Assembly (NCBI GenBank): GCA_039814735.1
Contig: JBCCAQ010000001.1
Span: 5,386 to 69,385 of the forward strand
Length of the DNA stretch: 64,000 bases
Reading direction: 5' to 3'
From: Cyanobacteria bacterium P01_A01_bin.15
GTDB lineage: Bacteria; Cyanobacteriota; Cyanobacteriia; Phormidesmidales; Phormidesmidaceae
Both the position numbers and the translations under genes were made by a program. The notes below the pieces were generated by a model. That model searched no databases, was not told where the DNA came from, and saw nothing but the letters and a program-made list of their open reading frames with translations. Of this stretch, positions 2,079 through 61,116 are shown one piece after another; position 1 is the stretch's first letter; every line of letters begins with the position of its first letter.

Positions 2079-2094
2079 TCTGTCCCAGGGTAGA
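2079..2094 (-). promoter_or_regulatory. Palindromic box; leftward promoter towards the GAF gene
   Basis: TCTGTC-CCAG-GGTAGA (+ strand); 22 bp, then TAGACT on the - strand. Confidence 0.7.
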
Positions 2095-2125
2095 TGAATC
2101 TGACCTATCGTTCCATGCTTGCCGA

Positions 2126-3478
2126 TTAGACCGCAAGATCTTCCTCAGGCATTTTAATCAACTGACGAGAGCGATTGTAGAGCAGCGCCATACCAAAGGA
2201 CAGCGGGCCAATCCGACCAACGTACATCATTGTGATAACAATCAGTTTACCCAGTACTGTCAGATCGCCGGTAATACCCCGAGATAGACCAACGGTACCC
2301 AGAGCCGATGCTACCTCAAACACGACATCTTCAAAAACCTGATCCTGAACAAGGAGCAAACCGCCAGTGCCAATCAGAAAGACCAAAATATAAAATACAA
2401 TGGCCGCAGAGGCTGCGGTGACCCGTTCTTCAGGAATACGTCGTCCCATGTAGGCAATGGCCTGATTTCCCCGTAGGCTGCTCCACATACCGCCTAGGGC
2501 CGCAGAAATAGAGGTTGTCTTGATACCACCCCCTGTACCAGAAGGCGATGCCCCAACGATCATCAGTGCCAGGGTCAACAGCACTGAAAAGGCACTAAGG
2601 GAGGCAATTGGATGGGTGTTAAAACCAACCGTAGTAAGAGCCGTCATTGACTGAAACCAGGCTGCCAAAATCCGCTCACCAATCGGTAGCGCCTGGATAG
2701 ACGTGTCAAACAAAAGCAGCAAAACAAAGCCAGCGATGATAAAACAGCTGGTAAAGAGCAGAATAACCTTGGATGTTAGGGACATGGTGCGACGCCGTTT
2801 GACGTTGCTTTGCCAAACGTCTGAAGCCACCAAAAAGCCAATTGCGCCCAGGAGGCTCAAAATGCTAACCACCACATTGATCCAAAAATCCCCGCGAAAG
2901 TCTTCCAAGCTGTTGGGGAAAATACTAAACCCTGCTGTACAAAACGCTGATATCGTATGAAAAATGGCGGTCCATAGGGGATTGTCTACACCCTGTATGC
3001 TAAATAACGGAGTCAGGATAAAGATACCTGCAATCTCGGCAAGGGCCGTAAAAATCACCGTGTGTTGAATCAGTGTTTTCAGGTCAAACCCTTCTGGTAA
3101 CGAAAAGACGACTGAACCAACCTGCTTACGAAAAGACGATAGCGTGTCATTCCCCATGAGTACGAGAAAAGATCCTACGGTCATATAGCCCAGACCGCCT
3201 AGCTGAAAAGCGATTAAAATAACGAGCTGACCCCAAAAGTTATAGGCCACAGGGGTATTGACGGTGACCAGACCGGTCGTACTAACAGCAGAGGTAGCAA
3301 TAAACAGATTATCTAGAAATGAGACAGGTCCGTCTTTCCAGCAAATTGGCAGGCTGAGCAGACACACAGCAACGATAATATAGCTGGCATAGCCAAACAG
3401 AATTATCTTTAGCGGATTAGCGCTAATTTTGCGTAGATATGCCTGCAGCTTTGATGGCTTTGGTTGAAGTGGTTCCAT
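2126..3478 (-). CDS. TrkH/KtrB family K+ uptake membrane subunit
   Basis: Four pore-loop motifs: SAVSTTGL, SAFCTAGFS, TALTTVGFN, SALGTVGLS; GASPSGTGGGIKTT. Confidence 0.92.
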   Translation of the reverse strand: MEPLQPKPSKLQAYLRKISANPLKIILFGYASYIIVAVCLLSLPICWKDGPVSFLDNLFIATSAVSTTGLVTVNTPVAYNFWGQLVILIAFQLGGLGYMTVGSFLVLMGNDTLSSFRKQVGSVVFSLPEGFDLKTLIQHTVIFTALAEIAGIFILTPLFSIQGVDNPLWTAIFHTISAFCTAGFSIFPNSLEDFRGDFWINVVVSILSLLGAIGFLVASDVWQSNVKRRRTMSLTSKVILLFTSCFIIAGFVLLLLFDTSIQALPIGERILAAWFQSMTALTTVGFNTHPIASLSAFSVLLTLALMIVGASPSGTGGGIKTTSISAALGGMWSSLRGNQAIAYMGRRIPEERVTAASAAIVFYILVFLIGTGGLLLVQDQVFEDVVFEVASALGTVGLSRGITGDLTVLGKLIVITMMYVGRIGPLSFGMALLYNRSRQLIKMPEEDLAV

Positions 3479-3531
3479 ATTTTTGAAGAGATAAGGAGAT
3501 GCGCTGTGTGGGTTGACAGCCTGGGGCCTAT

Positions 3532-3786
3532 CTATAGATCGCTGGCCGTGTCCGGCGCTATTTCGAGCCCGCCGTCTTGGACTACCTGCTGCTGATCTGT
3601 TACCAGGTCGGCGATGCCGTCCACCTCAACACCCATGTCCGCGCATGCCTGCTGCAAAGCAGCCCTAAACGTTTCAATATCAGTACCGTAGCCGCAGTTT
3701 TTTGCAGCGGCTTCTACCCCAGCCGATGCGCTGGCCTTGGCACAGCTGATTAACTCAATGCCGTCTAACTTTTTTTTGCTAGTCAT
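3532..3786 (-). CDS. Small conserved hypothetical protein (CGYG motif), paralog of 60638-60898
   Basis: Start placed at ATG 3786, downstream of the box promoter; similar to the 60638 ORF (AKA.A.AG...AA..CGYG.....F..ALQ.ACAD.G.E...L). Confidence 0.75.
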   Translation of the reverse strand: MTSKKKLDGIELISCAKASASAGVEAAAKNCGYGTDIETFRAALQQACADMGVEVDGIADLVTDQQQVVQDGGLEIAPDTASDL

Positions 3787-3848
3787 AGATTTTGTTAAGC
3801 CTACTATTGTGAATAAGCTGACGATACCATGCTGTTTTTGCTTTCTCA

Positions 3849-3864
3849 TCTGACTATAGGTAGA
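3849..3864 (-). promoter_or_regulatory. Palindromic box promoter
   Basis: TCTGAC-TATA-GGTAGA; 22 bp, then TATCGT on the - strand. Confidence 0.7.
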
Positions 3865-4102
3865 CGTTCAGCAAGCTTCTTTAGGTATAGAAGAACGCTA
3901 TACCTATGGGGTGAAAACTCTAATACTGTCTGGCATTGAGCTGTGCTACTTATCTCTCTGGTGATTCCATTCCGATGTTTGGGCCTTTTCTTGGAGTCTG
4001 ATGCTGTGGTTTTTGGGAGGGGCTGCTTCGTGGGGTAAGGGAGAAAAGGGTAAGAGAGAAAATTACGGGGACTTTATTGGTATGTGAGATCCCTACAGCC
4101 AT

Positions 4103-4132
4103 AAAAAAAGACTCCAGAAGGAGCCTCTTTTT
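4103..4132 (-). terminator. Intrinsic terminator after the AvaK-like gene
   Basis: On the - strand GAGGCTCC-TTCT-GGAGTCTT followed by a T run; A/T runs on both sides. Confidence 0.65.
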
Positions 4133-4193: not shown

Positions 4194-5132
4194 TTATCGC
4201 TTGGCTACATTAGGATTACCCTCTGAGCTAATGTCTAGCTTCTCACGACGTAGCTTCTCTTGCTCAGTAACAACGTCTCGGTCGGTTTCCTTACGGACGC
4301 TGACTTCCTCACGGACAAACGCCTCTTTACGGATATTGGCCTCTTCGCCATAGGTTTCCATACGCACTACCTCACCTTCATTAAATTCGGGGGTACCTGC
4401 TACTGCAGCTCCGTTGGTGGGAGCCGAGCGTTCAATTACAATACGCTCGTTTTGAACTGGGACGGAGACTTCTTGGGTTTCGGTCTCAACCCGTTTGCCA
4501 ACGGATACTGCACCTGTCTTAAAGCGATCCTTATCAGCGATCAGTCGTTCCTGATATAGGCGAATCGGCTCGTGGGCATCCCTATCCATCGCATAGAGCC
4601 CAGGCTCGCGGTCATAGTTGCCTGCTACCTGACGAGAGTCGGCAGAGGATGGGGTACCACCGGGATGTTCGGTTACACCATAGAGAGACGCACTACCAGG
4701 ATAGGCGCGGTATTCGTCTACCTTGTATTCTTTGCCCATAAACTGACGGGTGCGATTGTCACCAAGGGAACGATAGCCACTGCGAACCCGTTCTTCATAG
4801 TCATTATCGATAGTCATGTCGTCACTATACTCAGGCATATTTTCTACCTGATCTTTGGTCAGACCGTCGGCATAGATTCGCTTTTGGGTCTCATCAAATC
4901 GTGCTAGACCGATAGGTAAAAGAATGTTTTTACCAAATACCCAGAAGCCGGTATCAACAATTAGATAGCGAATGGTGCCAGTGGTTGTCTCAAACAGTGC
5001 GTCTTTGATAGAACCAACTTTGTCTTCGCCCTGGCTGTATACGCTGTACTCATCGAAGTGAGCCGCATTGCTATTGTTGCCAAGCTTCTCGCGGTAATTA
5101 GGATAAGCCTCTTTGAATTTCATTAAAGCCAT
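4194..5132 (-). CDS. PRC-barrel + DUF2382 (YsnF/AvaK-like) stress protein
   Basis: N-terminal KVGSIKDALF..GTIRYLIVDTGFWVFGKNILLPIG (PRC barrel); C-terminal IRLYQERLIADK...EEANIRKEAFVREEVSVRKE (DUF2382). Confidence 0.9.
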   Translation of the reverse strand: MALMKFKEAYPNYREKLGNNSNAAHFDEYSVYSQGEDKVGSIKDALFETTTGTIRYLIVDTGFWVFGKNILLPIGLARFDETQKRIYADGLTKDQVENMPEYSDDMTIDNDYEERVRSGYRSLGDNRTRQFMGKEYKVDEYRAYPGSASLYGVTEHPGGTPSSADSRQVAGNYDREPGLYAMDRDAHEPIRLYQERLIADKDRFKTGAVSVGKRVETETQEVSVPVQNERIVIERSAPTNGAAVAGTPEFNEGEVVRMETYGEEANIRKEAFVREEVSVRKETDRDVVTEQEKLRREKLDISSEGNPNVAKR

Positions 5133-5195: not shown

Positions 5196-5211
5196 TTCTC
5201 CCTTAGAAAGA
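5196..5211 (-). promoter_or_regulatory. Palindromic box promoter
   Basis: TTCTCC-CTTA-GAAAGA; 22 bp, then TAAGAT on the - strand. Confidence 0.6.
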
Positions 5212-5408: not shown

Positions 5409-6050
5409 TTAGATAGGGCGGCGAACCGGCTTGCGAGCGCCTACGGTTGAACCAATTAGGGATGCTACCCAGCCTAGCAAAGCACCAAACAGAAAAGACC
5501 AGCCTGCTTTTGCGGCGTTGGCTGCATACTGCTGGGCTTCTTGAGTTGTTACATCCGGTACGACTGTACCTGGATTGGGTAAAGACACACCGCTAGATTC
5601 TTGGATTTGGTCGATGACAGCGCCTGCGTTTGCAGCTGCTACTCCAAAGGTTCCAGAAACACCGCTAGCTAAGAGCCATGCGCTAACGGCTAGAGTTGTT
5701 GCCCACAAAATAGTTCCATTGAGCATAGCTGTTTTTTTGTTCATGGGGCCGCAGGTGCTACCCATAATCCAGCTGCCCAAAAAGAGTGAGATAAACAGAC
5801 TGGCAATAGACCAAATACTGACACCAGTCCCGACGGTGCCTGCGGCTGTACCGGTTGCACCAGCCGTTAGGCCAATCGATGCACCTAGGGCGCTTAGTAC
5901 TAGCTGGGCCGCGATGGATACAAAAATTCCAGCAAATATAGGACCCCATCGGACTCGGTCATGGTACTCGACAACAGGATTGAGGATTTGGGCTGTGGGG
6001 GCAGCAGGAATATTTTGATAGGTTGGATCTGGACGTTCTGCGTATGCCAT
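5409..6050 (-). CDS. Hypothetical 4-TM membrane protein; short homolog of the 39459-42539 protein
   Basis: RVRWGPIFAG..., three N-terminal TM helices plus one C-terminal TM; ATG 6050 with GGAG upstream. Confidence 0.8.
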   Translation of the reverse strand: MAYAERPDPTYQNIPAAPTAQILNPVVEYHDRVRWGPIFAGIFVSIAAQLVLSALGASIGLTAGATGTAAGTVGTGVSIWSIASLFISLFLGSWIMGSTCGPMNKKTAMLNGTILWATTLAVSAWLLASGVSGTFGVAAANAGAVIDQIQESSGVSLPNPGTVVPDVTTQEAQQYAANAAKAGWSFLFGALLGWVASLIGSTVGARKPVRRPI

Positions 6051-6140
6051 GGGAGATTTCTCCAAAAATAGATTGCTGCGGTTGAAATGGGTGCAGCATC
6101 GAAGTGTTCTCCATAGTAGAAGAGTTGTAAAATTTGATAC

Positions 6141-6156
6141 TCTATCTTCTGGTAGA
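6141..6156 (-). promoter_or_regulatory. Palindromic box promoter
   Basis: TCTATC-TTCT-GGTAGA; 22 bp, then TACTAT on the - strand. Confidence 0.8.
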
Positions 6157-6223: not shown

Positions 6224-6239
6224 TCTCTCTATTGAGTGA
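6224..6239 (+). promoter_or_regulatory. Palindromic box promoter
   Basis: TCTCTC-TATT-GAGTGA; 22 bp, then CAAAAT. Confidence 0.6.
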
Positions 6240-6296: not shown

Positions 6297-7178
6297 ATGG
6301 CCTTGTTTAAAATTGGCGACTGCTATCCCAACTATAGGGAACGGTTTTTTGATGGAAATGATATTAAAGGCACTAGCGTTTATTCATCTGGCAAAGACTC
6401 AGATAAAGTAGGCAGCGTTCACGATGTGCTGGTTGATGAGATCGGTCGTATTCGCTATCTGGTAGTCGATATAGGTTTTTGGATCTTTGGTAAGCGGATT
6501 CTCCTGCCCGTTGGCCAGTGTATTGATAAACCTGAACAAGAGCGGATCTATGCGACAAACCTGACTAAGGAAAGCGTAGAGCGCTTACCGGAATATAGTG
6601 ATGGTATGGTCCTGAACTTTGATTATGAAGAACAGGTCCGTTCTGTGTATCGCTTGCCGAGTGTCGAAGCGTCTACTCCTGTCGAAATGCTAACCCCAGT
6701 AAAGCAAACCGCTCGCCATGCCACGCCGAAAAAGCCCACCCAATATGTCCATGATCGCGAACCGACCCTTTATGGCATGAACGATAACAACCATCGACGT
6801 CTGCGGCTCTATGAAGAACGGCTGGTGGCTGATAAAGTCAGAAGAAAGACCGGTGATGTCAAAGTCAGTAAGCGGATAGAAACAGAGACTACAGACGCTG
6901 CGGTCACTATTCAAAAAGAAATTATTGTTATTGAGATTCAGTCAGTTCAGGGTGCCACCCGCGTTAATACGCCAGACGGTACGCTTCAGGATGGAGAGGT
7001 TGCCCACTTAGATATCTATGAAGAGCAGGCAAATATTCGTAAGGAACCGGTTGTCTATCAGGAGGTGAATATTCGTAAAGAGATCAAAACTGACGTTGTT
7101 ACCGGCCATGGGACGCTACGACGAGAAGAGCTAGATATTCACCAAGAAGGTGAGTCGCCATTGGCTGACAAGAGGTAA
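6297..7178 (+). CDS. PRC-barrel + DUF2382 (AvaK-like) protein, second paralog
   Basis: Same architecture as 4194-5132 (IRYLVVDIGFWIFGKRILLPVG; LRLYEERLVADK; EEQANIRKE). Confidence 0.9.
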   Translation: MALFKIGDCYPNYRERFFDGNDIKGTSVYSSGKDSDKVGSVHDVLVDEIGRIRYLVVDIGFWIFGKRILLPVGQCIDKPEQERIYATNLTKESVERLPEYSDGMVLNFDYEEQVRSVYRLPSVEASTPVEMLTPVKQTARHATPKKPTQYVHDREPTLYGMNDNNHRRLRLYEERLVADKVRRKTGDVKVSKRIETETTDAAVTIQKEIIVIEIQSVQGATRVNTPDGTLQDGEVAHLDIYEEQANIRKEPVVYQEVNIRKEIKTDVVTGHGTLRREELDIHQEGESPLADKR

Positions 7179-8143: not shown

Positions 8144-8159
8144 TCTATCTTCTTAGGGA
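8144..8159 (-). promoter_or_regulatory. Palindromic box promoter
   Basis: TCTATC-TTCT-TAGGGA; 22 bp, then TACACT on the - strand. Confidence 0.65.
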
Positions 8160-8332: not shown

Positions 8333-8348
8333 TCTGCTTTCCGGTAGA
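8333..8348 (+). promoter_or_regulatory. Palindromic box promoter
   Basis: TCTGCT-TTCC-GGTAGA; 22 bp, then TACGAT. Confidence 0.7.
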
Positions 8349-8419: not shown

Positions 8420-9220
8420 ATGGATTTAGGGATTAAGGGTAAGGTAGCTGTGATCACAGGTGGTGATATCGGTGGTATGGGGCATGCTACGGCCAAAATT
8501 TTGGCAGCTGAGGGCGCTAAGATTGCCATTATCGATCAAACCCAAGAGCCTTTGGATCAGGCTGTGGAGGAGGTGCGCAAGATCGGTGAGGCGATTGGGG
8601 TGACGGCTGACCTGACAAAGCTCGATCAGGTTGAAGCGGCCCAACAAAAGATTCTTGATCATTACGGTGAGGTTCATATTCTAGTCAATGCAGCCGGTAT
8701 CACGGGTGCAACCAAACCCTTTTTAGAGCTAAGTGATGATGACTGGTGGCAGACCATTGATGTGGACCTGATGATTGCTGTGCGCGTGTGCCGTGCGTTT
8801 ATTCCCTCCATGCAGCAGGCGGGCTGGGGGCGAGTTGTGCTGTTTACCTCCGAGGATGCGCTGCAGCCCTACACCGACGAGATGCCCTACTGTGCGGCCA
8901 AAGCAGGTGTGCTAAACCTTATGAAAAACCTTTCTAAAGAGTTTGCCAAGGACGGGATTTTGGTGAATTCGGTGTCTCCGGCTTATATTGCCACTCCCAT
9001 GACCGATGCCATGATGGAAAAGCGTGCTAACGAAAAAAACATGAGCTTTGATCAAGCCATTGAGACCTTTCTCGATGAAAAACGTCCGCATCTGGAGCTG
9101 CACCGGCGTGGTAAGGCCCAGGAAGTTGCGGCTGTTGTAGCGTTCCTGTGCTCTGAGCTGTCGACATTTATCGTCGGTTCTAACTATCGCGTTGATGGCG
9201 GTTCGGTTGCGACAGTCTAG
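8420..9220 (+). CDS. Short-chain dehydrogenase/reductase (SDR)
   Basis: GKVAVITGGDIGGMG, LVNAAG, YCAAK catalytic motif, VDGG. Confidence 0.92.
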   Translation: MDLGIKGKVAVITGGDIGGMGHATAKILAAEGAKIAIIDQTQEPLDQAVEEVRKIGEAIGVTADLTKLDQVEAAQQKILDHYGEVHILVNAAGITGATKPFLELSDDDWWQTIDVDLMIAVRVCRAFIPSMQQAGWGRVVLFTSEDALQPYTDEMPYCAAKAGVLNLMKNLSKEFAKDGILVNSVSPAYIATPMTDAMMEKRANEKNMSFDQAIETFLDEKRPHLELHRRGKAQEVAAVVAFLCSELSTFIVGSNYRVDGGSVATV

Positions 9221-10386: not shown

Positions 10387-10507
10387 AATCCTAAATCTCG
10401 TTTGTGTATCGCTAAGTGAAGATTACTAGCTCACCCTTAGCCGGATATCAAACTATAGACAGGTCTTTTAAAATCTCTCGGTCAGAGTAAATGGTTTTAC
10501 CCAAAGG

Positions 10508-10523
10508 TCCACCTGTGGACAGA
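10508..10523 (+). promoter_or_regulatory. Palindromic box promoter
   Basis: TCCACC-TGTG-GACAGA; 22 bp, then TATCAT. Confidence 0.7.
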
Positions 10524-13729: not shown

Positions 13730-13745
13730 TCTGTCTGAGGATATA
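13730..13745 (-). promoter_or_regulatory. Palindromic box promoter for amyA
   Basis: TCTGTC-TGAG-GATATA; 22 bp, then CATACT on the - strand. Confidence 0.65.
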
Positions 13746-14673: not shown

Positions 14674-14775
14674 TCTAGCCGAGGGACTAGAGGGGCAGGT
14701 GACCGTATCCATCTGTGGGCAGAAGCGAGCCGTTTTCTATCGTTGGAAAGAGAACAGCCTCATCCTTAGGCCATA
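14674..14775. promoter_or_regulatory. Cluster of palindromic boxes in a divergent intergenic region
   Basis: TCTAGC-CGAG-GGACTA 14674 (23 bp to TACAGT, -); TCCATC-TGTG-GGCAGA 14708; TCTATC-GTTG-GAAAGA 14736; TCATCC-TTAG-GCCATA 14760 (22 bp to TACAAT, +). Confidence 0.65.
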
Positions 14776-14839: not shown

Positions 14840-15709
14840 ATGGATAGTACAGAACGTCGCCCCACCCCAGATGAGATTTCCGGTCAACAGCTGGACTATC
14901 CGGCGAGCCAGTCGGATATGAAGATTCAGCCCGACTCAGATCTGTCTAACTACAGTCCGGCTAACAAGCTGATGGGTAAGGTGGCAATCATCACCGGGGG
15001 GGACTCTGGCATTGGTTGAGCCGTTGCGATCGCATACGCCATGGAGGGTGCAGATGTGGCCATTGTCTATTTGCACAGCGACGGCGATGCTGATAAAACC
15101 CGTGAACTCGTAGAAGCCGAGGGCCGCCAGTGCCTGACTATTAAAGCTGACGTGCGCGACCCGGAGGCCTGCCGCACCGTTGTTGAAAAAACTATCGCTA
15201 CCCTGGGTCATCTCAGTATTTTGGTCAATAATGCCGCCTACCAGATGGTACAGGAGACTTTTGAAGATATCACTGAAGAACAGTTTCGCCGTACCCTAGA
15301 AACCAATGTCTTTGGCTACTTTTATATGATCAAGGCGGCCGTACCCCACCTAAATGAAAACGATACTATCATCAACACTGGCAGTATCGTGGGAAAAATC
15401 GGCAAACCGTTTTTGATTGACTACGCGGCTAGCAAGGGGGCAATTCATTCCATGACTAAAGCCCTGGCCCTCAATTTGGCAGAGCGTAAGATCCGGGTTA
15501 ATGCCGTTGTGCCTGGCCCGGTCTGGACGCCGAATATTCCAGCGACAATGCCTGCAAAAATGGTGGACGGATTTGATACGGATGGTGCTCTCAACCGGGC
15601 GGCTCAGCCAGAAGAGCTGGCCCCAACCTATGTTTATTTTGCCTCCCAGGACAGCAGCTTTGTCACAGGTGCCCTGTTGGATGTAACCGGTGGCCAACTG
15701 TCGAGCTAG
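14840..15709 (+). pseudogene. General-stress SDR oxidoreductase (YhdF/YghA-like) interrupted by an in-frame TGA
   Basis: ATG 14840 reads ...KLMGKVAIITGGDSGIG*AVAIAYAMEGADV; TGA at 15017-15019 where GIGRAVA has Arg (CGA); YAASK downstream in the same frame. Confidence 0.85.
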
Positions 15710-15771: not shown

Positions 15772-15787
15772 TATGTCTTTAGGTGGG
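15772..15787 (+). promoter_or_regulatory. Palindromic box promoter
   Basis: TATGTC-TTTA-GGTGGG; 22 bp, then TAGGTT. Confidence 0.55.
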
Positions 15788-17324: not shown

Positions 17325-17364
17325 TCTACCAGCGTGGGTAACGCCTCGTATATCAACAGGTAGA
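17325..17364 (-). promoter_or_regulatory. Tandem palindromic boxes (starts 24 bp apart)
   Basis: TCTACC-AGCG-TGGGTA 17325 (22 bp to TATATT, -) and TATATC-AACA-GGTAGA 17349. Confidence 0.65.
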
Positions 17365-17563: not shown

Positions 17564-17728
17564 TTAGCGGGTAGACATCCAGGTAATGCCTAGCTGTTGT
17601 ACAAGTCCTTGACCCGTTAGTAGCTCTACTAAAATAGCTGATATAAAACCCAGCATGGCCAGACGGCCATTTAGCAGTTCGGCAAATCTGGTAAATCCTA
17701 CCCTGGCTTCTGGTTTTTGGATATTCAT
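17564..17728 (-). CDS. hli: High-light-inducible protein (Hlip/SCP)
   Basis: GFTRFAELLNGRLAMLGF...ELLTGQG chlorophyll-binding motif. Confidence 0.93.
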   Translation of the reverse strand: MNIQKPEARVGFTRFAELLNGRLAMLGFISAILVELLTGQGLVQQLGITWMSTR

Positions 17729-17797: not shown

Positions 17798-17813
17798 TCT
17801 GTCTGGAGATGGA
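17798..17813 (-). promoter_or_regulatory. Palindromic box promoter for hli
   Basis: TCTGTC-TGGA-GATGGA; 22 bp, then TATTCT on the - strand. Confidence 0.75.
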
Positions 17814-18192: not shown

Positions 18193-18678
18193 TTAACCGT
18201 GGCGATCTATCGCTCTGAGCCTACGTTTGCGGGCCTGCTTGTAGGCAGATGTTTTAGGGACTAGCTCCGGATTACGAACGGTGGGGGTCTCTGCCAGCAA
18301 AGCAATAATGCCGGTGCGCTCCAATTCAATAGATGTATCGATCAAGATGCCCTGGACGCCGATCTGCAAAATAGACTCAATCAGCCTGGTAATGTCTTGC
18401 TTGAGTCGCTGATTAACAGCTCTACTCACCTCTGATGATAGCCCTGATGCTCCTTGGCAGGATAGCAGCTGTTCAATCTGGGTGGTGCTACTTTCAATAA
18501 TGATCGCTAGCTCTTGACCAAACAGATGGCAGGTAACCCTGGTGGGTCTCTGACCCAAATGCTGTTTATAAAGCGTTTGAATTTTTTGTGATAGCTGTCT
18601 TTCTAGCTCACCACAGCTGGGTGTGAGCAGGTCCGACCGATGGTCAATGGGTAATATATCAATGTGCATTTTATCCAC
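18193..18678 (-). CDS. DUF2294 (MpsC-like) protein; start uncertain
   Basis: GELERQLSQKIQTLYKQHLGQRPTRVTC.LF...LAIIIE...TQIEQLL; ERTGIIALL. Confidence 0.85.
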   Translation of the reverse strand: MDKMHIDILPIDHRSDLLTPSCGELERQLSQKIQTLYKQHLGQRPTRVTCHLFGQELAIIIESSTTQIEQLLSCQGASGLSSEVSRAVNQRLKQDITRLIESILQIGVQGILIDTSIELERTGIIALLAETPTVRNPELVPKTSAYKQARKRRLRAIDRHG

Positions 18679-19121
18679 CGCCTGAGCAGATGAGCCTAAC
18701 TTGTCAAATTGAGATTGCGATGAATCTCTATTAAGAAATGTAACACCTTAGTTTTTAGCTGAATAGCTGGTTAAGCGTCTTTTTTCGACGGTTTTCCGAA
18801 CAAAGGCTCAACTATCTTGAATTTTGCAGGTTCGCCATGGGAACCTATTTTAATTTCTAGAGATTATTTGTTAATCTCTGGTCGTTGGCGAGTTAGGGAA
18901 GTTTCGGAATGCAGGTTTGGTAGCATAGCTCAGAGAAAATTGGGCTGCATGTATCCTGCTTCTTTATACTAAATAGGTATTCTCTGGGAAGCCGTCCCTT
19001 CCATGCTATGGCATGCAAGCTACGCTGACCATTTTCTACAAAAGAGCCGGTTAACTGGGGTCATTGCGTGTCAATGGTTGGACCGCTTCTTGATGAGCAG
19101 AAATGGTCCAGGGAAATTTTT

Positions 19122-19538
19122 ATGAATCACCCCAGTCTTCCACGACCGCTTGTTTTAGCCGTAGATGACAATCTAGATAATCTTTGGCTGTTGTCAATGG
19201 CTCTGGAGATGTTTGGCTTTTCACACATCTGTATCAATCAGAGTCAATATGTGATGGAAGCGGCAAAACGATACCAGCCCGATCTGATTCTTTTGGATTT
19301 GGTGATGGCGGACATTAACGGTATTGAGGTTGCCAACTACCTTAAGGTTGAGCCAACAACGGTGAATATTCCCATCGTCGGTGTGACGGCAATGGTTACC
19401 TATGATTATCCTAAATGCTTGCCCATAGAAATATTTGACAGCTTTTTAACTAAGCCGTACCTGCTGGATGATTTGCAAGATCTAGTCAAGGCCTCTCTTA
19501 AAAAGCAGGCACCCTACTGTCTAACCCCTAGGGTGTAG
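19122..19538 (+). CDS. Single-domain CheY/DivK-like response regulator
   Basis: LAVDDN, PDLILLDLVM, VTAM, FLTKPY; no output domain. Confidence 0.9.
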   Translation: MNHPSLPRPLVLAVDDNLDNLWLLSMALEMFGFSHICINQSQYVMEAAKRYQPDLILLDLVMADINGIEVANYLKVEPTTVNIPIVGVTAMVTYDYPKCLPIEIFDSFLTKPYLLDDLQDLVKASLKKQAPYCLTPRV

Positions 19539-19547
19539 CGGCTTGCT

Positions 19548-20018
19548 CTACTGGATAACAAACGGGAATCCAGCAAATATTATATAAATAAGCGTGCCTG
19601 TGATTATTCCATAGCAGCAGGAGAGAAAGGCGTCAGTCACACGACTGTTGAAACGCCATGAGGCGGCGACTAGGGTAATGGAAAATAGCAGCTCTCCCAG
19701 GGGAAAGGCAAAACCGTACAGCGACTGGGCAAAGCCAAACAGGAAGATAGTCCAAACGGTAAAAACAAAATAAAGGTTGAAAACCGGCACCATCATTTGG
19801 CGGCGAGGGCGCAAAAATTTGGTGAACAACCTCAGGTAGGTCAGGGTGGCGAAGGGTAGAATAGCCGCCGCCAGGCTGCGGAAACCGGCACTGGCGCTAA
19901 TGCCAAAGGAAAATACGATAAATGTTGCCATATAGGCCAGCAATATGAAAAGCGCGATCGCAATCACCGCCGCGTGTACCCACATGCGAGAATCTTTGAA
20001 ACGGCGTTTAATGTTCAT
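19548..20018 (-). CDS. Hypothetical membrane protein
   Basis: 156 aa with about 5 hydrophobic segments. Confidence 0.65.
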   Translation of the reverse strand: MNIKRRFKDSRMWVHAAVIAIALFILLAYMATFIVFSFGISASAGFRSLAAAILPFATLTYLRLFTKFLRPRRQMMVPVFNLYFVFTVWTIFLFGFAQSLYGFAFPLGELLFSITLVAASWRFNSRVTDAFLSCCYGIITGTLIYIIFAGFPFVIQ

Positions 20019-20201
20019 ATATCTACCCAGTATTGCTAGCCATTAGACCATTGGTCTAGACTAGGCGATACCTGCAGAGAGAGCCTATATCCAGGGTTAG
20101 ATCTATGGGTCAGCAGGCTAGGAATATATCGGTAGATATAGGTTTATTCAGTCAGTTTCGCTTCAAATGTGATCATCCCATTATAGATAGCCGCGATCGC
20201 A

Positions 20202-20393
20202 ATGAACGCTAACCGCCCCGTACCCGCTTCTCATGTCTGCCCCTGTTGCTCAAGGGCGTTGGTCCAGCAGATCCATAGCAGCCGTCTAGGCTGGTACTGT
20301 CTGGCCTGTCGCCAGAACATGCCCAGCCTAGGAACGGTTACTCCCCAGGCCGTTATTCCGCAGGAGACAGCCACACCCCCGCTGCGAGACTAG
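20202..20393 (+). CDS. Small Zn-ribbon-like protein
   Basis: CPCCS...WYCLACRQNMP, two CxxC pairs as in a small cyanobacterial protein family. Confidence 0.6.
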   Translation: MNANRPVPASHVCPCCSRALVQQIHSSRLGWYCLACRQNMPSLGTVTPQAVIPQETATPPLRD

Positions 20394-20405
20394 ATATCCC
20401 AGCTC

Positions 20406-20590
20406 TCTATCCCTAGATAGATAGAACAAATGAACATGCCTAAAAAGAGAAATTATGTCTCTATCTTTAGACATAGACTGATGTAAAGAATATGAGCGGT
20501 TTGTTGTTATTTGGCAAATAGGCGTTACAAATATCATTCTCTCGCTAGATAACATTGCCCCCCTAATTCTATTACTCTACATAAGAGTGA
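20406..20590. promoter_or_regulatory. Cluster of four palindromic boxes
   Basis: TCTATC-CCTA-GATAGA 20406 (perfect arms); TCTATC-TTTA-GACATA 20460; TCTCTC-GCTA-GATAAC 20538; CTCTAC-ATAA-GAGTGA 20575 (21 bp to TAAGCT). Confidence 0.6.
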
Positions 20591-20706
20591 CAGGTATATC
20601 AGCAAAGCTCATAAGCTTGTTGCTCATTTGGACCCTGCTGAGACCGGCTCTAGCAACGCTGAACCTGTCCCACTAGGGTCTTTGTTGTATCTATCATCCG
20701 ATCCAC

Positions 20707-21066
20707 ATGTCCGAGCCGATGACGCCAGCTGTGCCTACGTTGGCCCAAATGACTGTCAAGGTGCTGGTGCCTTGTTTGCCTCACATTTTTGCAGCGGATA
20801 CTAATCCTGTATTCCACGATCCGACCCTCAACTCGCAGATGCTACCCGATATCTCCCAAACACAGCTGCAGGCGGGACAGCTACTTTGGCAGGAACTATG
20901 GCCGGATATATCCCGAGACTATGAAACGGTGACGGCGGTTCAAAAGGTTGCCCGTACCCCCAATAGCCCAGTGTGGAAATCGGTTTTTGAGCAGGGTCTG
21001 ATTACTATCCTTTCTAGAAATGAGACCCTGGCCCAGGACCTGGCGGAGAAGCTTCGTGCCCTGTGA
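20707..21066 (+). CDS. Hypothetical protein
   Basis: 119-aa ATG ORF followed by a terminator; helical LWQELWP pattern. Confidence 0.6.
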   Translation: MSEPMTPAVPTLAQMTVKVLVPCLPHIFAADTNPVFHDPTLNSQMLPDISQTQLQAGQLLWQELWPDISRDYETVTAVQKVARTPNSPVWKSVFEQGLITILSRNETLAQDLAEKLRAL

Positions 21067-21087
21067 ATTAATGGTTTTTTTAAAGAG

Positions 21088-21118
21088 AAAAGGGTTTAGC
21101 GGCTAGCTAAACCCTTTT
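21088..21118. terminator. Bidirectional intrinsic terminator
   Basis: AAAAGGGTTTAGC-GGCTA-GCTAAACCCTTTT. Confidence 0.8.
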
Positions 21119-21172
21119 AAGGTGTTGAGTTAATGAAACGCCGAATGAAACGTCGGTGGATGTCCTGGGACG

Positions 21173-21571
21173 CTAGTTAAACAGATCCTTAATGGAGTCA
21201 ACCAGGCCTTCGCCAGCATCCTCAGCGGTATCGCCCAGGTCTTCAGCGGCCTCTTGGGTGCGGCCGATGTCACTCTTTACTTTGCCAGTGACCTGATCAG
21301 CGGCACCTTCAACCTGGCCGGTTACTTTACCAATGCTGCGCTCAGCCTTACCCAAATCCTGCTGAACCTTACCTTCGATCTGGTTGCTGGTGCCTTCACC
21401 AATAACGTTGTCCACTTCGGTAGCGGCGCGAGACATGGCAATGTTAGCCGAGTCAGTGGGCATTGCGATCGCAGATGACACAGCCACCACGTTTAGCAAA
21501 GCAACAGCGGCTAGGCTCAGACACAGCGCCTTGGCAGTTTGTCTAAGCATTTGAGACAGTTTAGTAAACAT
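21173..21571 (-). CDS. CsbD-like protein with signal peptide
   Basis: Hydrophobic N-terminus, then NQIEGKVQQDLGKAE..IGKVTG..QVEGAADQVTGKVK; upstream box TCAGTC-CTAT-GGCAGA at 21626. Confidence 0.85.
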   Translation of the reverse strand: MFTKLSQMLRQTAKALCLSLAAVALLNVVAVSSAIAMPTDSANIAMSRAATEVDNVIGEGTSNQIEGKVQQDLGKAERSIGKVTGQVEGAADQVTGKVKSDIGRTQEAAEDLGDTAEDAGEGLVDSIKDLFN

Positions 21572-22941: not shown

Positions 22942-22963
22942 CCGAAGGAAGCTGAGACGCGGT

Positions 22964-42400: not shown

Positions 42401-42539
42401 CGAACTCAAGCAGCAGGCACAGCAGCAGGTGGATGATACCCGTAAAACGGCTGAAGCGGCTTCCTGGTGGCTGTTTGGCACGGCTACGGTCTCAGCCATT
42501 ACCGCTGCGATCGCAGGCACTATTGCCGTCGGTGGTTAA
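39459..42539 (+). CDS. Large membrane-anchored helical-repeat protein
   Basis: 1026 aa; 3 N-terminal TM plus 1 C-terminal TM; four clear ~98-aa repeats YLR.T.KPELNP.GIKRDL..L..DP..G...L...DR.TL..L..QR plus degenerate copies. Confidence 0.9.
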   Translation: MIGHWIDLNLFHGGGALLAQLSTPGINTPEEAALVFSGPQFFIALLSGLILAFGFQLLLTNLSVAAGISYVGHSSSSKDSSGGIGPRKIGIAFGLWTLVTVSLALFFACLLAVKLSLYDSALLGAITGLVIWGTYFCLLFWVSSTTVGSLIGSVVRTATASFQALVGTATAAMGAKVASNQTIQTAEAAANAIRQELTAAWNGEDLAESLSDYLNALRSPELDVAKLESEFENLLQTSDVISGSNRDVLRQIDRQAFVELLQNRTDLSRQEVNRVANRLYSRWQAVSAHTGVESLVDYLRSAKPEQLMSEQLGQRLDQFLAEYRRQNTDHKGKSPLSQGMSQAFNMLSGVLMGRVDLSDADVGQLRKQLQSAQSQLGSQADTLVAQVTDGGESDGTIRADVENYLLGSYAWQLSPRRLEAEFAQVLYDRDADGRLLAAALQRLDLAYFRQVLESSGLLTQAEIEDTALRLETIRQQVLAEVTEQYRVAARKGLLSKVDTFLQYTPRGELFSEMGMDAFRALLEDDGVDASELEERFIQFGYEYFFKHLRQRDDLNEQEAGTVASRLEQVMQKVLADSKGLDASVEVRADQKWQELQTYLRDTGKPELNPEGIKADIHKLLDDPEVGSRRLQQRLSQFDRNTLIQLLSQRQEFSEAEIKRVMQDVEASWYSILRTPARLTEQAKANYEQANQAIANYLRSTGKPELNPTGIKRDLELLVNDPQAGMDAVRSRLASMDRDTLVQLLSQRDDLSEAEINRIIDDLLESIQSVLRLPRRLARRTQQQALSFKDALEDYLRSTDKAALNPEGIKRDLQLLLNDPRLGGERLQERLAQVDRDTVVTLIAQRDDMSREDVEAAVDQVLSVRDRLIAQIRQLQARLEMALNRILDQVRQYLDSLDRPELNYYGIKRDLTKLFDDPQAGFDALQQRLSQFDRNTLVALMSSHESVSQADANRVISQVEAARDSALRKAERLEQQVQSRISELKQQAQQQVDDTRKTAEAASWWLFGTATVSAITAAIAGTIAVGG

Positions 42540-47399: not shown

Positions 47400-47415
47400 T
47401 CCAACCAGCGGTAGA
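47400..47415 (-). promoter_or_regulatory. Palindromic box promoter
   Basis: TCCAAC-CAGC-GGTAGA; 22 bp, then TATTGT on the - strand. Confidence 0.7.
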
Positions 47416-49979: not shown

Positions 49980-50289
49980 CTCGGCATGCGAGAGCCCCAT
50001 GGCCGGTTGCACACTCAGGTAACAACATTGGCCATGGGGCTCAGTTCCAGCATTTCTTGGAATAAAAAAAGCCGCTTTTAGTCGCAGCGCTGGATCAGTT
50101 TTAGCGTTTGAGAATAATCCAAATAGCGTGGATGATACCGGGGATATACCCGAAGAGCGTCAGCAAAAGATTAATCCAGAACTGGGTACCGATGCCGACT
50201 TGTAAAAACACGCCTAGGGGGGGTAATACGATTGCAACCAAAATTCTCAGAATATCCATAACAATCTCCTACTATCTATGGTGTTAAAT

Positions 50290-50502
50290 TTATTTCTTCT
50301 GCTGGTAGTCTGGATCTATCCAGCACTGGGGTAGCGGCTCCCCTGATGGAAAAATGAGCTTTGTTTTATTGAAGGCGCTAGGTGGCTGTGCCGATTGCCC
50401 AGACTGCTGTCGTCCCTGAATTTCTGTCTCAAAGGGATTGAATAAGGCGTCGATATCGAGCACTTCGACTAATGTTTTGTCGTTGCTGAGCTTAACGAAC
50501 AT
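50290..50502 (-). CDS. Small conserved hypothetical protein
   Basis: 70 aa, LVEVLD...LFNPF...GR.Q.G.......F.K..L.FPSGE.LP.CW.DP.Y. Confidence 0.8.
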   Translation of the reverse strand: MFVKLSNDKTLVEVLDIDALFNPFETEIQGRQQSGQSAQPPSAFNKTKLIFPSGEPLPQCWIDPDYQQKK

Positions 50503-50599: not shown

Positions 50600-50615
50600 T
50601 CTGTCTAGGGGTATA
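50600..50615 (-). promoter_or_regulatory. Palindromic box promoter
   Basis: TCTGTC-TAGG-GGTATA; 22 bp, then TACCGT on the - strand. Confidence 0.7.
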
Positions 50616-52921: not shown

Positions 52922-55227
52922 GGGCTGGTGAGGGTAAAGAAAAACGTGGTGCCTTCTCCATAGGTAGAATCAAGCCAGATCTGACCGCCGTGGCGCTCTA
53001 CAATTTTTTTGGTAATGGTTAAGCCAGCCCCGGTCCCACCGCCGTATTTACCGGGGGCGTGCAGCCGCTTAAAGATTTTGAAAACGGTTTCTAAATGTCT
53101 GGGGCGGATGCCAATACCGTTATCACGCACATAAAAAACGGTGGCATCTGCTTTGAGGGCGATGGGGGCAGCGGTCTGGCAGTCTAGGGGTTTAAGCCAG
53201 CCAATCTCAATCCACTTTTCTGGTTTGTTGTTGTACTTGATGGCATTGCTCACCAGGTTGGTAAATAGCTCGGTAACCTGGCTGCGATCGCACACTAGCG
53301 TAGGCAGCGGCTGCGGTCTGCGGAAGCTGACCTGTTCAGGTTTGCTCATTTTGATTACATCAAGCACCCCATCCACCAGCTGATTGATATCCGTGGGCTT
53401 CATCAAAAACTCCGCCCGTCCCAGCCGAGAATAGTGCAGCAGCGAGTTGATCAAATCCTCCATGCGCTGGGTGAGGCTCATCAGCGTCTGCAGCTTGCGG
53501 GTCCCGTCTGCTCCTAGCTGGGTGCCGTAGTCCTCAATCAAAAAGCTGGAATAGTTGTGAATGCCGCGCAGGGGTTCTTTCAGGTCGTGGGAGGCCACAT
53601 AGGCAAAGGCGTCCAGCTCTACATTGCTACGCTGCAGTTCGAAGTTGAGCGCGGCCAGCTCGTCTGCTTTTTTTAGCACCAGATCCACAATGGCGCTGCG
53701 CAGTTCGATCGCCATTTCCACCTCGCAGGGTTTCCAGGGCAGGGCCTGGTGTCGCACCTGTTCTTTCCACTGTTCAAAGGACCGGCGAGGGGAGATGCGA
53801 ATGCTACCGTCATCCTCTAGTTCGACGGCTTTGTTAGGGTCACCCGCCCAGCTCACCGTTTGGGGTACCTCGGGACGAAACCACAGCAGATAGATGGGCT
53901 GTACCTGGGAAATTGCCAGGGCCAGCAGCCCGCTGGTGCCGCTCGCAAACTTTGCCGCCGGGGGATAAACCTGGGCCAGTGCGGATGTGTGGTACACCAT
54001 ATCGCCATCAAACCGGTCGCCTAGCCATGGGAGCAGCCGCTCAATGTCTTCACTGGCAGGGCAAAAGCCCACCAGCGTTATTTCTCCCTGTTCGCAGTAG
54101 GCGACGCCCGCCGCATCGGTCAGTGCCAGTAGCGATTTGGGGTTCTGGGTCAGTCCCTGGCGCAGGGTTTGGCTATGGATCAGCGTTTTGACAAAGCTGG
54201 TTTGGATGGCCTTTAGATTAATCTTGTAGTCATTGTCTTTGTTGGTTTCCCGTGGGGGTAGCTCCAGGGCAATCACCTGGCCCAAAAATTCGCAAACGGT
54301 GCGGATCTCCTAGGACAGCCTGTAAGGGCTATTGTGGTGGCAGGCAATTAACCCCCAGAGTTTGCGATCGCAAATTAGCGAAATGGACATCGATGCGCGC
54401 ACCCCCATGTGGGTCAGGTACTCCGTGTGCAATGGCGACACGCTACGCAGGGTGGCCAGGCTCATGTCTAGCGGCGCGGCGCTGGCCGCCACCAGCGGTA
54501 CGGGGGTGTAGGCCACATCGGGAATGAGCCGCAGCAGATTGAGCAGATACAGATGCTTAGCCTGTTTGGGAATGTCCGTGGAGGGATAGTGCAGCCCTAA
54601 AAAAGGCGACATCTCGGGCTGTCTGGCCTCGGCCACGACGCTGCCCGCTCCGTCTTGGTCAAAGCGATACACCATTACCCGGTCAAACCCGGTAATCTGC
54701 TTGATTTCTGATACCGCTGCTTGAAACAGCTCATCTAGGGTTTGGGTTTGCTGCAGACGGCTAACGGGACGTTTAACCAGACTGTAAAAGTCAAAAAAGT
54801 TCACCGATGTGGGAGCGGTAGGCGGTTCTAGCTCTAGCACGATGCTATTGTCGCTACGGTGGACGACACCTGAAAAGACCCGCACCGAGTCGCCGACCTC
54901 AATCTCAAACGAGATCGGATTAACTACCTCAAACTCCGTTGCTAAACAGTCAGCAATTTTTTGCAGCTGCGGTTCCCCAAGCACAGTCGATAGGGGATGC
55001 CCCAGCAGTTCCGCCGGGGAACGTCCCAAATAATCATCTGTATTTTGACTGACCTGCTCAATTATCCAGTCCTGGCTGACGGCTAGAAGGATCCCGTGGG
55101 GCTGGATTGCAGCTGGAATGTGGATCGGTTCGCGATCGCAGTTGGTAAGGTCGGCCCCGGTTTGCTGAGGGTCAGTAAGAGCGGCGATCTCAGCCTTGGT
55201 GTAAGCGGTAAAGTCCAATGCGGTCAT
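52918..55227 (-). pseudogene. Bacteriophytochrome (PAS-GAF-PHY-HisKA-HATPase, AphB/CphB-like) interrupted by an in-frame TAG
   Basis: DLTNCDREPIHIP, TDIP, SVSPLH (no GAF Cys), PRRSF, ASHDLKEPLR; the two ORFs are one frame: ..SPYRLS-TAG(54310-54312)-EIRTVCEFLGQVIA.. Confidence 0.9.
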
Positions 55228-59258: not shown

Positions 59259-59323
59259 GGTTTCTCCGGTTTTACTGGGGGATATTGATTCTAGGCGACA
59301 CTATTTCTGTCTGTTGGGTCCGT

Positions 59324-60277
59324 TTAGCTAGCGGCTAGATAGGCTCCCACGTCAGTCTGATGGCGGCGCATGCGCTTGAGGGCTTCCCGTTCAATCTGGC
59401 GGACCCGCTGACGGCTGATGCCCATCTGCTTACCTACTTTTGAAAAACTCAGGTGGACGCCGCTGTTAAGACCGTATCGCAGGGTAATCACCTGCTGTTG
59501 TACCTGGGAAAGGTGGGTCATCAGCTGTCTTAGATCTTCTTTTAAGGAGGACTGGGCAGCGTACTCTTGGGGGGTGACGCCATCATCCTCAAGCATGTCG
59601 CCCAGGCTGGTGTCTTGCTTCTCACCTATCCGTAGGTCGAGCGATAGGGGGTCGCGGCTTTGCAACAGCAAATCTCGCACCTTCTCGGCGGGTAGCTCTA
59701 GGGCCTGTGCCAGTTCAGCAATGGTTGCAGGGCGCTTTAGGGACTTGGCTAGCTGGCGCTGCACCTTACGGAGCTTGGTTAGCTTTTCGTTAATGTTGAT
59801 TGGTAGACGGATTGTACGGCTTTTTTCTGCGATCGCACGGGTCATGGCCTGACGAATCCACCAGTAGGCATAGGTTGAAAACCGGTATCCCTTACTGGGG
59901 TCAAACTTTTCCACCCCGCGCTGCAGGCCGATGGCTCCCTCTTGCACCAAATCCATAAATTCCAGCTGGTGCTTTTGATACTTTTTGGCGATGGAAACCA
60001 CCAGCCGCAGATTGGCCTTGATCATTTTTCGTTTGGCCCGCTGCCCGGCTTGGCGGATCTGTCTGAGTTCCTCTATTGAAACGTCAGCGGCATCAGCCCA
60101 CTGCCCTTGACTGGGGGTATGGCCCAGCGACGCTGCCAACGATTCTCGCAGGGTCTCAATCTGAATGCACTTTTGAACAGCCCTACCTAAAATCAGCTCT
60201 TCTTCGCGACTAAGGAGCGGGGTGCGGCCAATTTCCTTGAGATAAGCTCCAATGGAATCCGTAGACGTGTATGCCAT
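59324..60277 (-). CDS. Group 2 (RpoD-like) RNA polymerase sigma factor
   Basis: YLKEIGRTPLL, ANLRLVVSIAKKY, DLVQEG, FSTYAYWWIRQAMTRAI, RVRQIE; no region 1.1. Confidence 0.93.
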   Translation of the reverse strand: MAYTSTDSIGAYLKEIGRTPLLSREEELILGRAVQKCIQIETLRESLAASLGHTPSQGQWADAADVSIEELRQIRQAGQRAKRKMIKANLRLVVSIAKKYQKHQLEFMDLVQEGAIGLQRGVEKFDPSKGYRFSTYAYWWIRQAMTRAIAEKSRTIRLPININEKLTKLRKVQRQLAKSLKRPATIAELAQALELPAEKVRDLLLQSRDPLSLDLRIGEKQDTSLGDMLEDDGVTPQEYAAQSSLKEDLRQLMTHLSQVQQQVITLRYGLNSGVHLSFSKVGKQMGISRQRVRQIEREALKRMRRHQTDVGAYLAAS

Positions 60278-60454
60278 GAGACTAGACTGCTGTAGGGGGC
60301 AAATTATTGTTCAAAAACAGATGCTTAGATGAACTTGGTCTGGCCGATGACAAACGCTTGGCATCTATATGGATCTATATGGAAAGTGAGCCGGGCTCAA
60401 AGCCAAAGCCATTTAACTTGACGTTAGTATTGCAGTATCTAAAGGTGGGTTAAA

Positions 60455-60560
60455 TCTATCTAGGGACTTAGGTTCTAGCGCCAAAAGTGGAAGAAAAAAT
60501 TAAGAACGCTTTGCCCGTTGCGAAATGTGAGCTGATGATCTATTTCTAACCACAGATAGA
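60455..60560. promoter_or_regulatory. Palindromic boxes in a divergent intergenic region
   Basis: TCTATC-TAGG-GACTTA 60455 (sigma side, -10 unclear); TCTAAC-CACA-GATAGA 60545, then 22 bp to TAGGCT (+). Confidence 0.7.
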
Positions 60561-60637
60561 CGACGTTAGCGGCGATCTTGTTTAGGCTTACATCCAAGCT
60601 GATTCAGGCGCATCTGTAACAGAGTTTAAGAGTGTTT

Positions 60638-60898
60638 ATGGTTATTGGAAATTCAACACCCCTCAAGGGCATAGTCCTAGCCGGACGTGCCAAGGCAAAT
60701 GCCGACGCTGGCATTATGATTGCCGCTAGAAAGTGCGGCTACGGTAGTAATACAAATCGGTTTAGCAAAGCGCTGCAGTCGGCCTGTGCCGATACCGGTA
60801 TTGAGACGCAGGCGTTGTCAAACCTGATCGCCGAGCAGCAGAGGCTGGCGGAGCAAAAGGAAACTAATCCCGTTGCCGTGGTGGGTTGGCGACGCTAG
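60638..60898 (+). CDS. Small conserved hypothetical protein (CGYG motif), paralog of 3532-3786
   Basis: LKGIVL...AKANADAG...AARKCGYGSN...F..ALQSACADTGIE...L..L. Confidence 0.75.
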   Translation: MVIGNSTPLKGIVLAGRAKANADAGIMIAARKCGYGSNTNRFSKALQSACADTGIETQALSNLIAEQQRLAEQKETNPVAVVGWRR

Positions 60899-61100
60899 GG
60901 GCGTATATTTCTCCCTGTACGCCCAGAGACTGGGCCAAGGAATATTGCGTTAGCCCAAATCAGCGAGTTCATAATCTTGCCTATGTCGACTACTGTGGGG
61001 GTTCTCAAATGATGTAATCATTAACTCTCACCGTAGAAATTCTGTATAAGCAAATTCAGCTACAAATGCTTAACCTGAATTCATGGCCAGTACTCAAATA

Positions 61101-61116
61101 TCTATCTTAAGGATGA
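61101..61116 (+). promoter_or_regulatory. Palindromic box promoter for the cupin operon
   Basis: TCTATC-TTAA-GGATGA; 23 bp, then TAGAAT. Confidence 0.65.

Follow-up and report, generated by a model that had tools for sequence, protein, structure and literature searches.

Known stress regulators and their operators

OrrA (Alr3768), a response regulator described in Anabaena sp. PCC 7120 and in Nostoc flagelliforme, has some 400 dehydration-induced genes under its control, and cells need it to survive drying (PMC9804601). The accessible portion of that report has no occurrence of motif, binding or promoter, so it holds no OrrA operator sequence, and the accessible N. flagelliforme literature reports promoter binding and gives no operator sequence (PMC13131328). 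We analyse here a window of 64,000 nucleotides from the cyanobacterium P01_A01_bin.15 (positions 5386-69385 of C259, the island contig of this genome, G000), a gene island in which most genes are preceded by a palindromic box, TCTAYCT-NN-AGRTAGA, lying 22-23 bases before a TAnnnT -10 element. The box is real, and it is very probably the operator of OrrA, a NarL/LiaR-type regulator that would act from it as a class II activator near -42.5.

Operators of several other regulators bear on this comparison (statements from the literature, here and below, refer to the accessible portions of the papers cited). In Firmicutes, the LiaR consensus is T(X)4C(X)4G(X)4A, Lys177 of the protein contacts two guanines, and adjoining secondary sites are used (PMC4482077); the lactococcal CesR box is TCAGHCTnnAGDCTGA (PMC4447274). 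Class II promoters of the cyanobacterial activator NtcA have GTA-N8-TAC centred near -41.5, with a lone TAnnnT (PMC3898017). NfSrr1 of N. flagelliforme, a LuxR-type, OrrA-like protein, binds the treZ and susB promoters, and the motif ATMAGTAARCYYAAT has been proposed for it (PMC11962455). One review mentions a salt-activated motif, of unspecified sequence, in the sucrose cluster of Synechococcus 7002. We found neither a published OrrA site nor this box in the literature on OrrA or on cyanobacterial stress motifs, including the accessible parts of PMC12157317, PMC7760821, PMC4390843, PMC9971976 and PMC4390839; Ehira 2014, Schwartz 1998, Shang 2018 and Cumino 2010 could hold it.

The box and its distance from the -10 element

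A preliminary description, made from the letters of the window alone, had listed 36 palindromes at a set distance from a -10 hexamer, and every one of these is present as reported: TAnnnT 22 bases after the box (N22) in 25 of 25 cases, nAnnnT at N22 in 6 of 6, and hexamers at 23 bases (N23) in 5 of 5. The enrichment that it supposed is large. In the 51 intergenic regions of the window (16,071 bases) TCTAYC-N4-GRTAGA is found 3, 12 and 31 times at 0, 1 and at most 2 mismatches, versus means of 0.01, 0.14 and 1.9 +/- 1.5 (maxima 1, 2 and 7) in 200 dinucleotide shuffles of the same DNA. A palindrome-mode search by expectation maximization (EM), of the sort that had been proposed and supplied with neither a consensus nor a -10, ranked TCTnTC-N4-GAnAGA first (log-likelihood 147.9; the runner-up reached 100.6), and TAnnnT follows its top 70 sites at N22 22 times, at N23 nine times and at every other spacer one to five times. 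Since this search was blind to the -10, the worry that aligning boxes by their -10 had made the original counts circular is removed.

The spacer was first described as fixed at 22 bp. N22 is indeed the main peak, but N23 recurs as a regular alternative, and at several conserved boxes a canonical -10 is missing. The matrix is strongest at T1, C6, G11 and A16 (about 1.2 bits per column), and a weak preference extends to T7 and A10; the site is therefore better described as the 7-2-7 repeat TCTAYCT-NN-AGRTAGA than as two six-base arms. On this matrix, which was built without the -10 and gives all bit scores below, 27 of the 36 sites originally listed score at least 8 bits and five are weak (17325, 49094, 49209, 14674 and 55519; -2.2 to 5.7 bits); the list had missed boxes at 10448, 14736, 20086, 20406, 20460, 20534, 38711 and 60455. 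Column counts in 26 aligned N22 promoters revealed no conserved -35 hexamer in the 22-bp spacer. The dyad at a fixed short distance 5' of the -10 that marks class II promoters is present, with the N22/N23 peak seen in the window, in a genome of the same genus (G008), in one of another family (G230) and in G657, a stand-in for Nostocaceae. With the -10 in its standard position, the box centre would lie at -42.5 (N22) or -43.5 (N23). Public RNA reads at the avaKa promoter have a depth of 0-4 near the predicted start, too shallow to place it. A general spacing between tandem boxes was not found; 33 bp is favoured at orrA promoters only (10 pairs).

Conservation and confinement to the island

The box is concentrated on one contig and at the regulator locus described below. 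On C259, every 10 kb of intergenic DNA holds 12.8 boxes of at least 13 bits, compared with 0.26 in the rest of the genome (about 48-fold), and boxes range from the left contig end to near position 70,000. The 83 sites outside C259 show no N22 peak (N22 twice, N23 seven times, other spacers 0-8 times). G008 has the island with one inversion, 60 of the 125 open reading frames (ORFs) of its contig having homologues in the window; of its intergenic boxes, 65 lie within the first 92 kb and only 3 within the remaining 50 kb, with N22 19 times, N23 eight times and other spacers 0-5 times. In 19 orthologous promoter pairs of the window and G008, matched by hand, the box arms are 77% identical and the spacers 36%, and some pairs switch between 22 and 23. 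G230 has a smaller cluster in which 6 of 9 boxes are at N22.

Within the genus, orrA-family matches are present in 7 of 22 genomes (one match is partial), and avaK (3 genomes), chaB (3) and the island copy of psb35 (4) are confined to those seven; several of the genomes counted are incomplete, and related genomes are not independent. Genome-wide pattern counts in the relatives and the genus did not show co-occurrence with orrA, being too noisy relative to reversed-pattern controls. The island psb35 of the four genomes stands beside a core copy; all 4 island copies have a box (14-17 bits) and none of 19 core copies does, one of them having short upstream DNA. This suggests that the second, island-borne psb35 encodes a stress-specific photosystem II assembly factor.

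The candidate regulator

A single dimeric class II activator had been proposed, with OrrA as candidate and its gene outside the window, and both parts of this proposal gain support. G000 has 19 GerE matches in 17 proteins, and boxes above 11 bits are found upstream of only one of these, the gene at 2834-3538 of contig C229, the sole member of the OrrA family in the genome. Its two upstream boxes score 16.5 and 12.3 bits and are separated by 33 bp; the proximal box is followed at N22 by CATGCT. Homologues are present in 159 of the 251 genomes of the class that were sampled, and at 21 of the 30 best orthologue loci (that of G000 included) a box of at least 11 bits lies within 400 bases upstream, versus 2.7% of shuffles. 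Terrestrial cyanobacteria had been suggested for a cross-genome scan; the regulator's nearest named relatives are instead Leptolyngbya ectocarpi-like cyanobacteria (92%), a marine group.

The published orrA primer lies within the best match of the C229 protein in two genomes, G201 and G192. An exact scan of genome contigs with the published primers gave no match, and the first family searched had none either (0 of 90 genomes); in the stretches fetched from G657, 7 of 8 primers match exactly, the avaKd primer locus lying outside those stretches. The G657 protein marked by the orrA primer has its best match in G000 in the C229 protein, with 64.6% identity over 240 amino acids; the next match is at 34.6% and has a different helix. 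Both genes are divergent from a kinase gene followed by receiver genes. Best match and common gene neighbourhood mark the C229 protein as the predicted OrrA orthologue. Strong boxes at C229:879 (17.7 bits) and C107:1065 (15.4) precede genes for receiver and hybrid-kinase proteins that belong to the signalling cluster of the regulator itself, and these genes match the OrrA-dependent all3766. In another genome (locus L134, G673:C32) two genes for RNA-binding proteins and a sigma gene, next to an orrA homologue, have boxes of 16.5-18.4 bits beside them, which may be linked to OrrA's cold role.

The best structural matches of the DNA-binding domain in the Protein Data Bank are LiaR and VraR, with TVKTHV in common, and this helix is present in the C229 protein and all 24 family rows. 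OrrA keeps Lys177 and Thr178 of LiaR and has Gly in place of its Lys174. The operators are alike as well. The four strongest box columns (T1, C6, G11, A16) equal the LiaR consensus, and the LiaR/CesR/VraR operators share with the box a 16-bp 7-2-7 inverted repeat, tandem secondary sites and T1, C2, C6, T7, A10, G11, G15 and A16; they differ in having AG where the box has TA (positions 3-4), and their signal and targets concern cell-envelope stress, whereas those of OrrA concern osmotic stress or dehydration. In NtcA promoters, too, the dyad of a cyanobacterial activator keeps a constant distance to a single TAnnnT, but the box core is CTA-N8-TAG, its centre lies one base further upstream (a standard -10 assumed), and its likely reader is not of the CRP family. 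As the preliminary description had it, the box is no NtcA site: the GTA-N8-TAC core is absent (C 0.73 and G 0.02 at position 2). NfSrr1 resembles the regulator in being a LuxR-type response regulator of desiccation genes, but its motif ATMAGTAARCYYAAT, derived from promoter alignment alone, is non-palindromic and of other sequence. The OrrA regulon itself shares with the present system the regulator family (64.6% identity, helix, neighbours), the targets avaK, dps-chaB, All0164-like, Alr5330-like and HLIP, and a box 5' of OrrA-dependent genes; it differs in that in G000, a distant lineage, most of the regulon stands in one island of at least 70 kb.

Agreement with OrrA-dependent expression in Anabaena

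Fold-changes were taken from selected rows of the 5,340 in Table S1 of PMC9804601, to which all expression statements here refer. Primer anchors, together with gene order and product names, served to assign Anabaena ORF numbers to the genes of G657, and a gene was called OrrA-dependent if its dehydration induction was at least 3 and its wild-type/mutant ratio at least 2.5. Among 45 G657 genes that have an upstream region to themselves, boxes of at least 8 bits with TAnnnT at N22/23 precede 11 of 16 dependent versus 1 of 29 other genes (p=4.5e-6; the cut-off was chosen after the scores had been seen, and the genes counted are those whose rows were fetched). Leaving out primer- or family-anchored genes gives 5 of 9 versus 1 of 29 (p=0.0014), and restoring five dropped probable operon members gives 11 of 21 versus 1 of 29. 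Individual loci agree: all3766, which has its own box, is induced 34-fold inside an otherwise uninduced cluster in which all3767 and all3765 are boxless and uninduced, and the boxed alr5324 is induced 19-fold versus 0.9 for its boxless paralogue alr5326. Induction of orrA itself falls from 32-fold to 4-fold in the orrA mutant.

A second comparison began from the motif. Intergenic, gene-facing sites were collected from regions fetched by pattern or homology, and expression was looked up afterwards, except for all0002, whose row had already been seen. Eight of 16 such genes are dependent (all3198, all3191, alr0248, alr2562, alr5324, all5334, asr0431 and alr0428; at the alr2562 site the gene may be either of two ORFs), versus a background of about 7.5% (about 400 of 5,340 genes; p=7e-6). 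EM on the 16 OrrA-dependent promoters returned two nearly tied motifs, TnTnTCT-nn-AGAnAnA and TCTnTCT-nn-AGAnAGA, which are compatible with the box but AT-biased. The boxes of sigB2 (8.1 bits) and mth (8.4 bits) lack a canonical -10.

The avaKb-avaKd region of G657 (loci L098 and L171) is a smaller OrrA-dependent cluster, with DUF389, AI-2E, NhaP and Alr5330-like homologues of window genes. It also holds a second, OrrA-dependent psaB.

Proposed mechanism

We infer a mechanism of the following kind. Drying, salt or osmotic stress would activate a histidine kinase, possibly the divergent one beside the C229 regulator; in N. flagelliforme the kinase Dsp1 acts upstream of OrrA (PMC13131328). Phosphorylated OrrA would dimerise, and the lysine of its TVKTHV helix would read G11 and the G opposite C6, as in LiaR. 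The dimer, placed over the -35 region, would recruit RNA polymerase to promoters that have a -10 only. Through the boxes 5' of its own gene OrrA would also raise its own expression, in a positive feedback loop, and the group 2 sigma factor of the island may share the work.

Counter-evidence and alternative explanations

A number of observations weigh against OrrA as the reader of the box. With a cut-off of 7.5 bits the contrast in G657 weakens to 11 of 16 versus 4 of 29 (p=5.5e-4), and 5 of the 16 dependent heads, avaKb and all0459 among them, lack a box plus TAnnnT. In the motif-first comparison six of the 16 genes are negative (all0002, all0432, all3263, sigD, all4467 and alr4468) and two respond to salt only (alr2331, and asl0514 as a borderline case). 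Six or more other intergenic sites have no clear gene in front of them, and several pattern matches fall inside genes, so the motif alone is only moderately precise genome-wide. The expression data come from another organism than G000 and were placed by synteny. SigB2 is itself partly OrrA-dependent, in line with its reported control by OrrA (PMC12282138), so part of the regulon, and some of the induction, may be indirect. Finally, a 27-row tree groups the family and does not separate OrrA from its Nostocaceae paralogues, which number 2-3 and have the same helix (GTVKTHVR in those of G657 and G488).

These paralogues favour the next explanation in order of probability, namely that an OrrA paralogue such as NfSrr1, or another OrrA-controlled regulator, is the main reader of the box and that OrrA dependence is indirect. 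NfSrr1 does bind two desiccation-gene promoters (see above), and other regulators, alr0072 and all3766 as well as sigB2, are OrrA-dependent. We nevertheless regard this as unlikely: G000 holds a single family member, its next match having a different helix, loss of orrA alone abolishes induction in Anabaena (PMC9804601), and the motif proposed for NfSrr1 differs from the box. Repression, or activation combined with repression, with the fixed spacing a mere overlap with the -35 region, could be imagined from the boxed genes all0002 and all0432, which fall under stress, and from LiaR, which represses hrcA in S. mutans (PMC4447274). This is very improbable, because the usual effect of the orrA mutation on boxed genes is a loss of induction and not a rise, and because the 22-bp spacer has no conserved -35 hexamer. 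That the palindromes are non-regulatory remnants of a short repeat of the REP (repetitive extragenic palindromic) kind is scarcely credible, for although the genome has such a repeat (below), its window copies sit away from the boxes, which lack conserved repeated flanks and a location after gene ends, and orthologous boxes keep their arms and -10 while their spacers diverge. OrrA remains the very probable reader of the box. It is likely that the box is a new operator of the LiaR kind for an already known master regulator of dehydration tolerance.

Genes of the island

The genes of the island make up a set for general stress and dehydration. They encode two AvaK-like and two CsbD-like proteins, Dps, ChaB, HLIP, Psb35 and a helical carotenoid protein, together with TspO, DJ-1, MscS and topoisomerase IB, and besides these SDRs, transporters, a phytochrome module and a group 2 sigma factor. 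Some of the small ORFs downstream of the boxes, hliP and psb35 among them, escaped the preliminary description. Each box below is given with its strand, its score in bits and the hexamer that follows it.

At the left, boxes at 2079-2094 (-, 14.7, N22 TAGACT) and 3849-3864 (-, 15.6, N22 TATCGT) precede a 186-amino-acid ORF (1269-1829) and a small ORF (3532-3849). The avaK-like genes at 4194-5132 (PRC barrel and DUF2382) and 6297-7178 have boxes at 5196-5211 (-, 7.9, N22 TAAGAT) and 6224-6239 (+, 13.2, N22 CAAAAT), and the membrane protein gene at 5409-6065 has one at 6141-6156 (-, 14.4, N22 TACTAT). Further along, 8144-8159 (-, 8.6, N22 TACACT) serves an alpha/beta hydrolase, 8333-8348 (+, 9.6, N22 TACGAT) an SDR (8420-9220), 10448-10463 (-, 10.2, N22 TAATCT) an AI-2E transporter, 10508-10523 (+, 13.9, N22 TATCAT) a pyridine nucleotide-disulphide oxidoreductase and 13730-13745 (-, 14.4, N22 CATACT) an alpha-amylase. 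Tandem boxes at 14674-14723 (-; 14708, 13.9, and 14674, 3.3, N23 TACAGT) lie 5' of a DUF1206 gene and others at 14736-14775 (+; 14736, 15.7, and 14760, 7.9, N22 TACAAT) 5' of an SDR gene with an in-frame stop; 15772-15787 (+, 8.5, N22 TAGGTT) precedes the helical carotenoid protein and a SnoaL-like ORF. The stop (15017-15019) breaks the SDR (about 14840-15709), and another at 54310-54312 splits a Cph1-like phytochrome; both genes are intact in G008, and the stops could be decay or assembly error.

A TPR protein follows tandem boxes at 17325-17364 (-; 17349, 13.1, and 17325, 3.6, N22 TATATT), the HLIP gene (17564-17728) a box at 17798-17813 (-, 13.9, N22 TATTCT) and a membrane protein (19548-20018) one at 20086-20101 (-, 12.3, N22 TAGTCT). 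Three boxes in 20406-20549 (+; 20406, 17.6; 20460, 16.3; 20534, 10.8, N23 TACTCT) precede the ORF at 20707-21066. Single boxes lie 5' of a DUF2294/MpsC protein (21693-21708, +, 8.5, N22 TATATT) and a DUF2267 protein (23743-23758, +, 12.5, N22 TATATT). Three DUF2294/MpsC proteins and two lone receiver proteins are clustered at 18193-23443, syntenic in G008. Back-to-back boxes at 26006-26062 (26006, -, 12.4, N23 TAGATT; 26047, +, 12.8, N23 TATTGT) separate a divergent small ORF and SDR, and those at 29128-29192 a DUF389 gene (29128, -, 17.8, N22 TATCCT) and a CsbD-like gene at 29255-29437 (29177, +, 14.7, N22 TAAATT). A 99-amino-acid ORF and a small acidic ORF (30204-30443) follow boxes at 29651-29666 (+, 15.3, N22 GACTAT) and 30146-30161 (+, 9.8, N22 TACACT).

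The island psb35 (30546-30725) has a perfect box at 30780-30795 (-, 14.0, N22 TACACT), and the bacterial topoisomerase IB gene (30961-32022) one at 30889-30904 (+, 11.4, N23 TAGATT). That at 32426-32441 (+, 9.6, N22 AACTAT) precedes a holin-like protein with four transmembrane segments, 66% identical to the OrrA-dependent All0164; 33210-33225 (+, 15.6, N22 TATCTT) a small ORF (33289) and an AraC gene; and tandem boxes at 35998-36037 (+; 35998, 13.5, and 36022, 7.5, N22 TAACCT) a lipoprotein (36110-36907), 35% identical to Alr5330. The dps-chaB pair, whose products are 68% and 75% identical to the OrrA-dependent All0458 and All0457, has a box at 38711-38726 (-, 13.4) with no canonical -10 at N22/23. 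Boxes in 39235-39341 face Hva1 (39235, -, 6.5, N22 TATGTT) and a 1026-amino-acid membrane protein (39326, +, 11.5). This protein (39459-42539) has internal repeats and weak family matches and is 78% conserved in G008; a related boxed gene is on contig C305. A ZIP-family transporter follows 47400-47415 (-, 10.3, N22 TATTGT), and small ORFs (50290-50502 and 50101-50259) follow 50600-50615 (-, 14.0, N22 TACCGT). The group 2 sigma factor gene (59324-60277, -) has a box upstream at 60455 (13.0, N23 AATACT), and boxes at 60545-60560 (+, 15.3, N22 TAGGCT) and 61101-61116 (+, 14.0, N23 TAGAAT) precede a small ORF (60632-60898) and cupin-glyoxalase-SGL genes. Elsewhere in G000, boxes also precede an Hsp20 gene on contig C341 and, on contig C169, a further group 2 sigma gene.

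The REP-like palindromic repeat has the core GTTCCATGGAAC and 80 genome copies, five of them in the window (12065, 12096, 58433, 63606 and 63647). Horizontal origin of the island is not supported: there is no tRNA on C259 or on contig C8 of G008, and the G+C content of C259 (48-52% versus 52%) is mildly low.

Significance

It is probable that the OrrA operator is a LiaR-type site kept from Nostocaceae to the present lineage, so that the direct desiccation regulon could be read from any genome, and that the window belongs to a "dehydration island" under one regulator, at least 70 kb long, which adds second, stress-controlled copies of genes for photosynthesis (psb35, HLIP, carotenoid protein, sigma factor) and is found within the genus only together with orrA. 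A defined box would separate direct from indirect OrrA targets and make activation by OrrA testable by single-base changes. It offers a compact design for salt- or drying-inducible promoters, would predict regulons in unculturable desert and marine cyanobacteria, and gives dozens of small, unknown proteins of the island a role in stress.

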